Below, one piece after another: positions 2,345-6,635 of a DNA stretch of 58,472 nt. The translations under genes and the position numbers were made by a program. Each line of letters begins with the position of its first letter. Within the stretch, counting starts at the first letter, position 1. Origin of the DNA: Candidatus Latescibacterota bacterium (lineage in GTDB: Bacteria; Latescibacterota; UBA2968; GCA-2709665); the NCBI GenBank assembly GCA_963662665.2, contig CAXXJS010000014.1, positions 1 through 58,472 on the forward strand, in the 5' to 3' direction. The notes under the pieces are model-generated. The model did no database searches. It saw nothing but the letters and a program-made list of their open reading frames with translations, and was not told the origin of the DNA.

Positions 2345-3310
2345 ATGAAGGACAAGAAGAAAATATACCTGGATTTCGAGCGTCCCATTGCGGTACTGGA
2401 TAAAAAAATCGAAGACCTCGAGATCCGCGCCGAAACCGAAAACACCGACGTGTCCGTCGAACTGACCACACTGAAAAAACGGGTTGAAAAGGTGGAGAGG
2501 GAAATCTACTCGGATATGAGCCGGTGGCAGATTTACCAGGTGGCGGGACACCCGCAGCGCCCGCACACGATGGATTACATTCGGTTGATGCTCACCGACT
2601 TTATGGAACTCCATGGAGACCGGACCTACAGAGACGATCCGGCAGTTGTGAGCGGCTTTGCCCGGCTCGACGGACAGCCGTTACTGGTCCTGGGTACGCA
2701 GAAGGGGCGCAATACGCGGGAGAATATTCATCGAAACTTTGGCATGGCGCACCCGGAAGGATACAGAAAGGCACTGCGCGTCATGAAACTCGCCGCGAAA
2801 TTCAAACGCCCCGTCCTCTGTCTGATCGATACGCCCGGGGCTTACCCGGGTATCGGATCGGAGGAACGGAGCGTTTCGGAAGCCATCGCCAGAAATCTTT
2901 TCGAGATGTCCCGGCTTCCGGTTCCCGTCATCGTGGTCATTATCGGCGAGGGGGCAAGCGGCGGCGCACTCGGCATCGGCGTCGGCGACCGAATCCTGAT
3001 GCTGGAAAACGCCTGGTATTCCGTGATCAACCCCCAGTCCTGTTCTCTTATTCTCTGGCGGAATCGCGACAAGAAGGAAGAAGCAGCCGAGGCGCTGAGG
3101 ATCACCGCACCGGACCTGGTCCCTCTTGGGATTGTCGATAGAATAGTACCTGAGCCCTTTGGTGGCGCGCACAGAGACCATGTTACGACAAGTGAAAACC
3201 TGAAGCGTATCCTGCTGGACGAACTTCAGAATCTCACGCGCAGGCGCCCCGACGAGCTTGTCCGCGAGAGGGTCGATAAATTCGGTCGGATGGGGGTGTG
3301 GGACGAGTGA
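2345..3310 (+). CDS. accA: Acetyl-CoA carboxylase carboxyltransferase alpha subunit
   Basis: [43 protein letters not shown]. Confidence 0.97.
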
Positions 3311-3611
3311 TCCGCGCTTGCCGATGGGCGCCCGGATAGTAGATACTCCAGGTTGAAAATTTAGCAAAAAATGGGCCATCGTGTGCCCGTTTTCTTTGGC
3401 CATTATGACTATGAACGCCGAACTTTCAGTAACTTGCTGTTTACGCGGGACGTTCAGCAATTTGACCAAATTTGAGGATAATTGTTGCAGAAACCGGCGA
3501 CAGGGACGCCGCCAGAAACTAAAGAAAAAAAATATCACGTCCAGCCATTTGTGTTTCAATATCTTATGCGTCAGTCACCCGAATTTCAACCTCTTTTTCT
3601 CAGATTACCCC

Positions 3612-3640
3612 TTGACGACATGGCAATCGGACTATATATT
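3612..3640 (+). promoter_or_regulatory. Sigma70-type promoter
   Basis: TTGACG-17nt-TATATT; IHF-like TTTCAATATCTTA at 3554-3566 upstream. Confidence 0.7.
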
Positions 3641-3646
3641 TCAGAA

Positions 3647-4116
3647 CGTATCCGCGAAGAGACTGCTTTCCTGTAAGATGTTGTCTTGGAGCAGGTTACA
3701 ATATCGGACCCGTGCGCCTTTAGGTGGGTTCTCCCGAGGCGAAGAAGCCCGGATTTGGTACAGAACCGGGGAATTACCGCGGTTCGTTTTGATGTTGGGC
3801 CGAAGCCCATAGAACACATACGCGTTTACAGGGTTATTGGGCGTCGGCGGTGCCTCGTTTCGCAAACAGAAAACGATTTTATGGGCGGTATGGACGTTAA
3901 GGGAATACGCTTCGGCACACGATCCAGCCTGGGGGAAGTTGAAAGCAACGGCTCTTTGGTTGGCGGCAGTCTTATTGGGGGAGATAATACTGCCAGCGAG
4001 ACCGATCAGATAGAACTGCTGCTTTTCTTCTTATGCATCGTGGCTCTGTGTCGACACATCGTTCCTGTGCGTCCATCCGCCCATTTTTCTGTTGCCCCAT
4101 GGCATTCCCGCGGATC
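3647..4116 (+). ncRNA. Candidate large structured non-coding RNA (unclassified)
   Basis: Downstream of a strong promoter, no credible ORF. Nested helices 3650-3656/4109-4115, 3865-3873/4085-4093, 3881-3896/4070-4084, 3918-3923/4037-4042, 3944-3955/4012-4023, 3965-3970/3989-3994; local hairpins and a cUUCGg loop. Confidence 0.6.
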
Positions 4117-4265
4117 AATTGGACGGCTCTCGCCGCTTCCAGATTCACCGGACAGTAATTTTCGCGCGTAAGACACGCATAGACCGGTTCCGCACGTTTC
4201 GCGTTCGCGCGTATCCCCGCAACCCACCCGGTAAACCAACCCCGATGACTCTCCCTGCCGCGCCT

Positions 4266-6635
4266 TCACGGCTCCTCAAGCCACCCACGCGCGTCAATAC
4301 CATGCTCATCGATGTGTATCTCTACGGCGCCCATCAGATCGGTCCGGTAAATTGAAATCCCCATCGCCTCGTAGCGCCGGATCACCTCAGGGGAAGGATG
4401 GCGGAATTTGTTCCTGATCCCGCACGAGACCGCGACCAGCTCGGGACGTACGGCGCCCAGAAAGGCGGCCGTGGACGACGTGCGTGATCCGTGGTGAGCG
4501 GCCTTCAGCACCTGGGCGCGAAGCCGGTCCCCCCACCTCAGGAGATCAGAATCGGTCTCATGTTCGATGTCGCCCGTAAGCAGAACGGCGATACCTCTAT
4601 AGGTCAAACTGATCACCACCGAACCGTTATTGAGGCCCAGAGGGGCAGGTCCGTTTCGCGAGACATAATCCGGTGTCGGGTGAAGGACCACGGCGTCAAC
4701 GTCACCAAGTCCCGCGAGCCGGTCCCCTGCCCCCACTGCGGCATAGCGTATGCCCTTATTCCGGATCAGCGTGCGGATCCGACGGGCCGTCCAGGAATCG
4801 TAATGTTGACCGGCGTCCAGGTACCAACCGACCTCTACCCGGTCCAAAAGCGTCACGAATCCGCCGATGTGATCGCTGTGCGGGTGGGAAGCGACGACGG
4901 CGTCGATTCGATTGATCCCCTCCGCCTTCAGAAACGGAATCAGTACGCGTTCCCCCACATCGATGTTCACCGCACGCAAGCCGCCGTCAACCAGCACGGT
5001 CCTCCCATTGGGAAACCTCAGAAAGATTCCGTCGCCCTGTCCCACGTCCAGCACCAGGATGCGCAAGCCCGCGGGCCTCGGCCAGAGATCTGACCACACC
5101 CAGAGATTCGCCACGGACAACGCAATGAAAACAAACCGGCGACCCCACGGTTGCGACCTCGCGCCGGGCAGGATCAGGAGCGCCGCACAGAGATACAGCC
5201 CCATTGCGGTCCATCCGGGCCTTGGTACTTCAACGGCTGCCCATGCCGGCGCGGCGAACCAGCTCGCGGCCATAATGGCGCCCTTCAAGACAATCCAGTT
5301 CGCGCCATTCAACAACGCCGCGACCGAAGACGACAGGTGAAAAATGACTACCCCGATCAGCCCCAGCGCGACGGCAGCCGCCATCAAGGGTACCACAACG
5401 AGATTGGCGATTACCGACACAACCGAGAGTAACCCGAAATAGGTAAGAACCAGAGGCAGTGTGGCCACCTGCGCGGCCACCGAGACCGCCAGCGGTGTCC
5501 ACACCCATTGGCCCACGCCACCGGCACGGCCGGCAGGTAACCACGCCCGTATCGGTCTATAGAGTACAAGTATTCCCGCGGTGGCGGCAAATGAGAGTTG
5601 AAAGCCTACGTCGAACAGGTCCTGCGGCCTGAATATCAAAATAAGAAAGCCTGCCAGGCCGAGTGAATTCAGTCCCTCTCCCTGTGTGTTCCCCAATCGA
5701 CCCCAAATGGTAATCGCGCACATCATGGAGGCCCTGACCACGGACGGCGGCAGACCCGTAACCAGGGCGTAGAGCAGCACGGCGCAAACGGTCGACCATG
5801 CCGTTGTCGTCCTGCCGCATCCGACCGCGCCGAGTCCGAAAAACACCACCGCGGCAATCAGACCCACGTGTAAGCCCGAAACAGCCAGTACGTGGTTGAC
5901 GCCTGCCCGTGTGAACGCCGTACGCACGTCGTCGGGCACACCACGTTTCTCCCCCAGCAATATCCCTTTCAGCAATCCTGCCGGCCCGCCGGACAGATTG
6001 TACGCCACGCCCCGTCGCACGCCCCGGCGCACGGGTAACACCACGTACGTCCACAACCACCCCCCCTTTCCCCTTTGGGTTTCCAGGATCTGTTCGCTCC
6101 TGGAAACGGAACCCATCACGTGGATTCCCTTACGTTCCAGAAAGTCGCGGTAGTCGAACGCACCGGGATTTCTGGCGGGTTGTGGCCGGCGAAGGTGGAA
6201 CCGCGTCACCAGACGGTCGCCGTAGTCCACGTCCGGCCGGAATTTCCGGATCCTGATGAGAACCGTTCCCCGGATCGAATACACCGTGTCACGTACGGTT
6301 ACGCGTTCCGCGGCCAGCCGCAAACGCAACCCGTCTTCCATCCATTCCGGTTCCTCAACGACGCGCCCGTCGAGCAATACCGGATCGTTTCGTCCGGCAA
6401 ACAGGACGATATGGTTTTGAGGCAGATCTTCCATAACGCTTTCGTACCTCATTGCACCCAGAACAATCAAGAGAACGCCGGGCCAGGGCCAGCGACTTTT
6501 CCAACCTGCCGCTGAAACGACCCAGAGTGCGAGGCCGCCGGTCCAAAGAACCCATACAGGCACCGCCCAACGATGTGCCACGAGCACGCCCGTGGCAAAA
6601 AACGCCGCAGATAGCAATGCCGGGCGTCGCGTCAC
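4266..6635 (-). CDS. comEC: DNA internalization competence protein ComEC/Rec2
   Basis: NPGAFDY, HVLAVSGLHVG, GFQLSF, DVGQGD, SHPHSDHIGG, HHGSRTSS, HPSPEV. Confidence 0.96.
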   Translation of the reverse strand: MTRRPALLSAAFFATGVLVAHRWAVPVWVLWTGGLALWVVSAAGWKSRWPWPGVLLIVLGAMRYESVMEDLPQNHIVLFAGRNDPVLLDGRVVEEPEWMEDGLRLRLAAERVTVRDTVYSIRGTVLIRIRKFRPDVDYGDRLVTRFHLRRPQPARNPGAFDYRDFLERKGIHVMGSVSRSEQILETQRGKGGWLWTYVVLPVRRGVRRGVAYNLSGGPAGLLKGILLGEKRGVPDDVRTAFTRAGVNHVLAVSGLHVGLIAAVVFFGLGAVGCGRTTTAWSTVCAVLLYALVTGLPPSVVRASMMCAITIWGRLGNTQGEGLNSLGLAGFLILIFRPQDLFDVGFQLSFAATAGILVLYRPIRAWLPAGRAGGVGQWVWTPLAVSVAAQVATLPLVLTYFGLLSVVSVIANLVVVPLMAAAVALGLIGVVIFHLSSSVAALLNGANWIVLKGAIMAASWFAAPAWAAVEVPRPGWTAMGLYLCAALLILPGARSQPWGRRFVFIALSVANLWVWSDLWPRPAGLRILVLDVGQGDGIFLRFPNGRTVLVDGGLRAVNIDVGERVLIPFLKAEGINRIDAVVASHPHSDHIGGFVTLLDRVEVGWYLDAGQHYDSWTARRIRTLIRNKGIRYAAVGAGDRLAGLGDVDAVVLHPTPDYVSRNGPAPLGLNNGSVVISLTYRGIAVLLTGDIEHETDSDLLRWGDRLRAQVLKAAHHGSRTSSTAAFLGAVRPELVAVSCGIRNKFRHPSPEVIRRYEAMGISIYRTDLMGAVEIHIDEHGIDARGWLEEP

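Follow-up and report, generated by a model that had tools for sequence, protein, structure and literature searches.

What kind of element occupies the 955-bp gap between the convergent genes accA and comEC in a genome of Candidatus Latescibacterota bacterium? The window analysed here is the whole 58,472-nt stretch of contig CAXXJS010000014.1, to which all coordinates refer. A preliminary description of this DNA had placed in the gap an independently transcribed, large noncoding RNA (ncRNA) of an undescribed class. This proposal has held up: a promoter and a rod-shaped hairpin are conserved in 14 of 14 congeners, the helices covary, no Rfam family matches, and no reading frame remains open. It is very probable that the element is a real ncRNA and that its family is new, being absent from Rfam 15. 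With regard to its role, we favour, at a little better than even confidence, the reading that 3612–4088 on the + strand is the gene of a trans-acting, abundant and structured ncRNA, housekeeping-like in one order, that works as a decoy or scaffold.

Distribution and structure of the rod

The core of the family is the 3' rod at 3878–4089 (+), an imperfect hairpin of ~210 nt that ends in a U-run. Two covariance models were used to follow it: R1, a model of the rod, and R2, a second model built from 27 rods. The rod of the source genome scores 228 bits with R1 and 181 bits with R2. Genus-level groups are labelled g1–g11, with g1 being the genus of the source genome, and families are labelled f1 and f2 within the order and f3 for the sister family.

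At the DNA level, the locus was found at a single place in the source genome, and BLAST recovered it from 14/14 other genomes of the genus with 74–80% identity; the matches end at ~4088, with one exception reaching ~4170. A 30-nt BLAST match in another genus (G021) lies inside an open reading frame (ORF) and was rejected as chance. R1 gave full-length matches in three further genera of the family (65–95 bits) and weak matches in its sister family. R2 matched once and only once per genome in 49 genomes (18/18 of f1, 30/30 of f2 and the source genome) and not at all in 102 genomes from 12 other families of the phylum. Two more genomes, G017 and G048, also carry the rod, so that the order has 51 carriers among its 53 genomes. 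The two genomes without it constitute genus g5 (0/2); one has a contig that ends inside accA and the other is an assembly with no accA match, and this absence is not evidence of loss because the locus is unassembled in both. The syntenic place was also inspected in f3: all five genomes (5/5) have accA, and in none of them does the rod or comEC follow downstream. Four of these genomes have at most a short spacer (with a terminator-like hairpin in three) before an ORF on the opposite strand, and the fifth has an ORF on the same strand.

An exact scan of 185,579 species genomes for the apical motif of the rod returned 44 loci, and R1 recognised a full rod in 32. Among the latter, 27 are labelled Candidatus Latescibacterota or Latescibacteria, and three are Gemmatimonadota metagenome-assembled genomes that score like the genus of the source genome. 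The remainder of the scan consisted of one further Latescibacterota locus cut at an edge and 11 chance matches in unrelated taxa. The three Gemmatimonadota-labelled loci (L099, L109 and L117) have rods of 232–250 bits and the gene order aminotransferase, accA, RNA, comEC; the phylum label looks doubtful, since both the rod score and the gene order match those of g1. In G048, two near-identical accA–RNA loci (L079 and L114) lie ~50 kb apart across the ends of the record, which could reflect a genuine duplication, the presence of two strains or an overlap at circularisation. Assemblies were observed to break at, or to miss, conserved stable-RNA loci (G018:C211, ending in accA; G021; G000).

Conservation is concentrated in the rod. 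Over the 14 congeners, identity to the source sequence is 84% for accA, 62% for the spacer before the promoter, 78% for the promoter, 64% for the 5' domain of the RNA, 85% for the rod and 78% for comEC, and it reaches 92% for the rod core at 3920–4050. The mean column identity of the rod within the genus is likewise 92%.

The rod taken alone (3878–4092) folds with z = −5.44, and 0/200 shuffles folded equally well. RNAalifold applied to the genus yielded 107 pairs, which form an unbranched rod at 3881–4084 and, 5' of it, a small number of helices. The nested helices named in the preliminary description, namely ATGGGCGG at 3881 with CCGCCCAT at 4077, CACGAT with ATCGTG, the AGCAACGG arm, and GGCAGT with ACTGCC, were all found to pair. 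Other details of that description are not upheld. The outermost rod helix, AACAGAAAA with TTTTCTGTT (3865/4085), runs into unconserved sequence. Neither side hairpin, gcUUCGgc or TGTG-TCGA-CACA, is supported: the bases of both form pairs from one side of the rod to the other, and in 5 of the 15 sequences one such pair is G-C in place of A-U.

Comparison with relatives, proposed at the outset as a check, showed the rod to be conserved across the order and its stems to covary. When the genus was aligned with plain MAFFT, 96.1% of cells were paired, compared with 36–48% when the partners are slid, and 14 pairs carry compensatory changes, compared with 3–6 in the slid controls. Across genera, two model-fitted alignments have 86.8% and 84.7% of cells paired (38–51% when slid) and compensatory changes in 62 and 65 of 71 pairs, respectively; 0/500 shuffles reached the observed values. 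Single-sequence folding is independent of the models, and each rod among the folds listed is one long hairpin. One result counts against a rod that is supported evenly along its length: plain MAFFT with RNAalifold across 29 rods recovered no more than 19 pairs, which make up the apical helix and a portion of the closing stem; of these, 16 carry compensatory changes. Support for the middle helices thus comes from the model-fitted alignments and the single-sequence folds and is less independent.

Does the rod belong to a known RNA class? The cmscan search suggested earlier returned no strong match. With Rfam 15 (4227 models), nothing in the window matched at the gathering score, and the region 3300–4300 gave only noise at E values up to 10. 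Homologues from other genera (19 loci) gave no match at E up to 0.1, and those from g6 and g8 gave only terminator-type noise at E up to 10. No Rfam 15 match was obtained for OLE, ROOL, GOLLD, raiA, HEARO or Ms1, the models of which all belong to that library. The earlier statement that signatures of RNase P RNA, tmRNA and signal recognition particle (SRP) RNA are absent agrees with the location of these RNAs elsewhere. RNase P RNA lies on contig C50 (259 bits) and tmRNA on contig C37 (209 bits) of the same genome. The large form of SRP RNA was found elsewhere in 4/4 near-complete congeners (174–179 bits) and the small-form model matched in 5/5, with no SRP match in the window. The element resembles the large bacterial SRP RNA in its rod-like shape and in the conservation of its internal and apical loops, but the bona fide large SRP RNA sits elsewhere in congeners. 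SRP RNA was not found in the source assembly, which is 92% complete; in congeners it lies 76–86 kb from the rod locus. No paper on an ncRNA of Latescibacterota was found in the literature searched, supplements lying outside that search.

Could the conserved sequence instead be the mRNA of a small protein, or a dual-function RNA? A 161-aa frame at 3686–4171 is open in the source sequence, and a core frame at 3837–4013 reads as a hydrophobic stretch. However, 14/14 congeners have TGA where the 161-aa ORF has CGA (3920–3922), none of the 15 sequences has a stop-free frame among the six, and the locus has indels of 1, 3 and 5 nt within the genus. The 161-aa ORF matches no Pfam family. In addition, no codon position varies over ~75 nt of the core, the short frame does not keep its stop (TAG versus CAG), and the frames differ between genera. 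Codon-level conservation of the 161-aa ORF, which the preliminary description had named as evidence that would speak against an ncRNA, is not seen, and a coding role is the least probable of the alternatives, being extremely unlikely.

Promoter, extent and genomic setting

The near-consensus promoter reported earlier was recovered as a sigma-70-type promoter, TTGACG-17-TATATT, at 3612–3640 (+), matching 10 of 12 consensus positions and lying within the invariant TATATATT. Both hexamers are invariant in the alignment of 15/15 genus members. A promoter scan listed five promoter-like sites in 3200–4400, compared with 0.8 expected. One of the listed sites, TTGGCG-17-GATAAT at 3960–3988, lies inside the rod, and its GATAAT is part of the invariant apical motif; an internal promoter at this place is unlikely because the −35-like hexamer is lost in other genera. 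Directly upstream of the −35 hexamer, a T/A-rich block at 3594–3611 (+) is mostly conserved among the 15 genus members (alignment columns 1–18) and is possibly UP-like, that is, similar to an upstream promoter element.

Beyond the genus, the motif TTGAC[TG]-N17-T[AT]TATATT precedes the rod in 20 of 21 representative loci and in 10 of 11 genus-level groups. Its position relative to the rod varies widely: −94 in main g6, −203 to −257 in a g6 subgroup, −266 in the source genome, −322 to −382 in g9, g10, g8, g3 and g11, −423 in g4, and −555 or −605 in g2. With the promoter 94–605 nt upstream of the rod, the length of the 5' part is variable.

In the source genome, the 5' leader or domain is placed at 3647–3877 (+), 231 nt, with the start near 3647 predicted from the −10 hexamer. 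This domain is lineage-variable; in other genera it measures ~58 to 570 nt, and it cannot be aligned between families. By arithmetic, the whole RNA would measure ~300–800 nt across genera. The folding test against shuffles, also suggested earlier, upheld the 3' rod but not the 5' half, for which z = −1.08 and 29/200 shuffles folded equally well. Of the string of 5' hairpins once described, GAACCG/CGGTTC is present and conserved within the genus, and three helices of the 5' domain show compensatory changes there, although the half as a whole is no more stable than chance.

The 3' end is predicted from conservation. A U-run at 4084–4088 (+) directly follows the G+C-rich closing stem and is likely the 3' end or an intrinsic terminator; conservation in all 14 congeners stops here, and beyond GCCCATTTT the 15-sequence alignment diverges. 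In groups other than g1 and g3, the rod is followed by a distinct terminator hairpin. The end was therefore set at ~4088, and the RNA would span ~3647 to ~4088, roughly 445 nt, in place of the ~450–470 nt extending to 4116 given in the preliminary description. The closing of the RNA by pairing of ATCCGCG (3650) with CGCGGAT (4109) was likewise abandoned: the pairing exists in the source sequence, but its 3' arm lies beyond the conserved end, and the 5' arm pairs locally in congeners.

The 955-bp gap and the convergence of its flanking genes were confirmed, Pfam identifying the products as AccA and ComEC. The upstream neighbour, accA (acetyl-CoA carboxylase carboxyltransferase alpha), lies at 2345–3310 (+) and matches Pfam ACCA PF03255 (E 7e-138). 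The comEC-like gene lies downstream at 4266–6635 (−) and matches Competence PF03772, DUF4131 and Lactamase_B. The order-wide gene order is aminotransferase, accA, RNA, comEC (convergent) and truA; the rod is nearly always found between accA and comEC, and accA stands upstream in most genera of the order. In g2, the RNA is retained with no accA found upstream of the rod in the locus analysed. Between accA and the promoter, a terminator-like hairpin at 3367–3397 (+) can be read in the sequence and its repeat arms, consisting of an A-run, GGGC (3373–3376) pairing with GCCC (3385–3388), and a T-run (3390–3397). It resembles a bidirectional-type terminator and would part accA from the RNA gene. A terminator scan of 3200–4400 (rule: at least 5 stem pairs) listed none, this hairpin included.

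This fixed position beside accA and comEC across the order raises the question of whether the element acts in cis, as a 3' untranslated region or terminator of accA or as an antisense RNA or terminator of comEC, or whether it functions as DNA, for example as a repeat or a palindrome bound by a protein. That both strands of 3647–4120 fold well (z = −4.40 on the + strand and −4.26 on the − strand) would suit a DNA element. However, a conserved promoter dedicated to the RNA lies 300 nt beyond accA, with the terminator-like hairpin before it, and the RNA stops 177 nt short of the comEC stop codon, separated from it by an unconserved spacer with 27% identity to congeners. The RNA is also kept in g2, as described above. 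The strands are not equivalent in the R1 score, which is 228 bits for the + strand and 26 bits for the − strand, and G-U cells number 197 across the rod alignment compared with 73 A-C cells; this asymmetry and G-U excess favour a + strand RNA. A repeat or mobile element was considered and rejected on one match per genome (49 genomes) with fixed synteny; being single-copy, the element is not a repeat. Considering these data, a cis-acting or DNA-level role is very unlikely.

Evidence of expression comes from RNA libraries of relatives, in which contigs covering 3880–4050 were found in 4/4 runs from four studies. In one run, the depth of the contig with the rod core was 661, versus 2.9 for the comEC contig, depth in relatives' contigs being a poor measure of abundance. 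These contigs derive from relatives, carry no end or strand information and may include DNA; they are a hint of high expression, not proof. The 5' domain of the relatives is too diverged for contigs to be placed on it, so the uncovered parts carry no conclusion.

Unpaired elements and candidate partners

What might such a rod bind? Its conserved elements, predicted to be single-stranded, would lie ~19–20 bp apart. The apical loop motif, GGGGGAGAT at 3977–3985 (+), is the most conserved element of the family and is invariant in 15/15 genus members; GGGGGAGAU in this loop is invariant in 28/28 rods from 11 genus-level groups. The 12-mer of the apical motif occurs once in the source genome. On the 3' strand of the apical arm, an asymmetric bulge at 4004–4011 (+) is unpaired in the consensus, and the ACCGA-like motif preceding it is partly conserved across genera. 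The central internal loop has the 5' strand GCCTGG at 3927–3932 (+), followed by a G-run and unpaired in the genus consensus. In minimum free energy (MFE) folds, this strand measures 0–8 nt across genera and 0–1 nt in g8 and g9. Opposite lies the 3'-strand central bulge ATGCATCG at 4033–4040 (+), unpaired in the consensus and 7–11 nt long in MFE folds, which includes the self-complementary ATGCAT at 4033–4038; its UGCAUC is nearly invariant in the 28 rods. In a g9 locus (L145), a 5'-proximal hairpin ~290 nt upstream of the rod carries a second copy of the apical motif, GGAGAUAAUAC, paired to UAUCUCC, and UAUCUC stands at the equivalent place in other f2 genera.

In the reading that we favour, transcription would start near 3647, the variable 5' leader would be an accessory or precursor part, and the closing stem with its U-run would terminate the RNA near 4088. 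The rod would be the working part, showing its conserved single-stranded elements along a DNA-like helix to a partner present in every member of the order, and would titrate a protein as a decoy or serve as a scaffold. That the partner is a universal protein machine appears slightly more probable than the alternatives taken together. RNA polymerase, bound in the manner of 6S or Ms1 RNA, would be the leading candidate, but naming it specifically is tentative and draws on analogy.

The analogy has several sides. 6S RNA binds the sigma-70 holoenzyme and serves as the template for product RNAs. In the 6S layout, a closing stem interrupted by small bulges leads through a central loop into an apical stem with a terminal loop at its tip, and synteny and abundance are 6S traits, according to passages of PMC8414754. 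The Latescibacterota rod, 173–215 nt across the family, is close in size to the ~180–210-nt imperfect hairpin of 6S RNA (RF00013, 6S-Flavo) and shares this sequence of closing stem, central loop and apical stem. Further likenesses are a single copy, an own strong promoter, conserved synteny and apparently high abundance, and with RF00013 no other 6S candidate is detectable in the carrier genomes: the model matched in 0/1 source genome, 0/5 near-complete congeners and 0/48 genomes sampled from the order. Size, rod shape, strong promoter, fixed synteny, apparent abundance and the empty 6S slot thus fit a polymerase decoy of the 6S/Ms1 type. Ms1 RNA of Actinobacteria offers a second comparison, as it is larger than 6S, 6S-like, missed by 6S models, found via synteny and bound to the RNA polymerase core, as stated in parts of PMC9130861 and PMC4191392. 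On the same partial accounts, it resembles the present RNA in being lineage-restricted, larger than 6S and structurally 6S-like. The two differ in that they show no sequence or model similarity and belong to different phyla, and polymerase binding is proposed for the Latescibacterota RNA by analogy.

Several observations weigh against the polymerase and 6S comparison. The 6S, 6S-Flavo and Ms1 models gave no match even at E values up to 10. An apical loop as the most conserved part is not known as a 6S trait. The Latescibacterota rod has this invariant apical loop and no large 5' central bulge; its conserved central element is the 3'-strand bulge, the 5' strand being the merely 0–8-nt element seen in MFE folds. 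A 5' leader of 58 to ~570 nt in the predicted primary transcript is a further difference from 6S RNA. By comparison, canonical 6S RNA has a large 5' central bulge that contains the start site of product RNA (pRNA) and templates it, facing a 3' strand that can form a hairpin, according to passages of PMC8414754. Nor is the silence of RF00013 in the order specific, because the model fails in most of the phylum: among 151 genomes it gave six sub-threshold matches, all in two other families with small genomes. The preliminary description had kept a 6S-like identity of the rod in view. Its size and layout fit this identity, but no model matches and the large 5' central bulge is missing; on these two grounds, the model-based comparison leaves 6S identity open while leaning against strict membership.

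The six sub-threshold loci (L132–L137, from f9 and f12, with genomes of 0.8–2.6 Mb) are full-length 6S matches of 22.7–43.2 bits against a cut-off of 46.4 bits. They may be true 6S RNAs of the f9 and f12 lineages, and R2 gives no match at them.

The G-rich loops invite a different reading, in which the RNA is directed at translation: Shine-Dalgarno (SD)-like sequences, GGGGGAG in the apical loop and GGAGG or GGGGG in the central loop of most genera, would pair with the anti-SD of 16S rRNA or with C-rich mRNA leaders, thereby titrating the 30S subunit or regulating targets. The universality of the apical GGGGGAGAU in 28/28 rods suits this reading, as do the central-loop 5' strands, which read AGGAGG in g6, GGGGGAGG in g2 and g4, and GGGAGG in g3 and g11. 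The genome also has the usual 16S 3'-end motif, and in a crude count SD-like words precede 28% of putative starts compared with a background of 13.5%. However, g8, g9 and g7 lack the central G-run, and one g6 species has GGAAAAA in its place, so that only the apical copy is universal. Complements of the apical region of at least 12 nt amount to at most one 12-nt site in the genome (C25), and the apical 9-mer is not enriched, with 22 sites compared with ~37 expected by our arithmetic. In addition, a ribosome-sponge RNA is not known from bacteria. On balance, a translation-directed RNA is unlikely.

The same G-rich, GGA-containing motifs, repeated in the apical loop, the central loop and the 5' domain, recall the CsrB/RsmZ sponges. 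A CsrA sponge was rejected: PF02599 was found in 12 of 53 order genomes, with 0/15 in g1 (the source genome included), 0/21 in g6, 0/2 in g2 and 0/2 in g3. Unlike the CsrB/RsmZ sponges, the Latescibacterota RNA is mostly carried by genomes that lack the CsrA gene, which excludes CsrA as the partner.

The central bulge suggests yet another possibility, a self-assembling architectural RNA in which rods would pair with one another via the self-complementary (G)AUGCAU(C), and the G-rich loops would dock on C-rich motifs of the 5' domain. Among the 28 rods, the hexamer at 4033–4038 is AUGCAU in 16, GUGCAU in 6, GUGCAC in 3, and AUGUAU, AUGCGU and AUACGU in 1 each, so self-complementarity, with wobble allowed, is kept in 27/28. 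The double change from AUGCAU to GUGCAC in three g6 species preserves it, and 8-nt palindromes (GAUGCAUC and GGUGCACC) occur in many rods. UCCCCC or CCUCC, complementary to the G-rich loops, is found in the 5' domains of most genera, and UAUCUC, complementary to the apical GAGAUA, near the 5' end in f2 genera. Homo-oligomeric ornate bacterial RNAs have been reported and set a precedent (bioRxiv 10.1101/2024.12.08.627333, in part). However, the palindrome is broken in one g3 species (AUACGU) and one g1 species (UCGCAU), few independent change events lie behind the hexamer variants, and the C-rich motif is not conserved within g1. Duplexes between the loops and the 5' domain outperformed mononucleotide shuffles (5% level) in no more than 5 of 20 loci, and a protein site could account for the same conservation. 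Self-assembly is accordingly given as small a share of our belief as the pairing with 16S rRNA or mRNA leaders.

The large bacterial ncRNAs OLE, ROOL, GOLLD, raiA and HEARO, whose functions are unknown or emerging, have ornate, multi-junction folds. The Latescibacterota RNA is like them in being long (~300–800 nt), highly conserved, taxon-restricted, probably abundant and not cis-regulatory, with a possible self-association motif, but its core is a simple unbranched rod. That it is a new housekeeping class and not a diverged 6S RNA, with rods that would form RNA–RNA assemblies or capture the translation machinery and a 5' domain that would modulate the rod, is a possibility that we regard as rather doubtful.

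Meaning for the Latescibacterota

What would such an RNA mean for these bacteria? It is rare for an RNA to be present order-wide at one genomic address, to have a consensus promoter and to surpass the adjacent essential gene in the conservation of its core. The comparable RNAs, namely rRNA, tRNA, RNase P RNA, SRP RNA, tmRNA and 6S RNA, each mark a central function of the cell. The Latescibacterota RNA would accordingly be either the missing polymerase regulator of the 6S/Ms1 type in an unusual form or an undescribed kind of housekeeping RNA. Its newness concerns the RNA family; the mechanism may prove old.

Three practical uses follow from the family itself. R2 can be used in genome annotation, the RNA can serve as a marker of the order, and the rod is short and well defined enough to be made in vitro for tests of partners, despite its hosts being uncultured. 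Overall, if the RNA were indeed a new class and not 6S, a core RNA machine without counterpart in model bacteria would exist in one order of an uncultured phylum.

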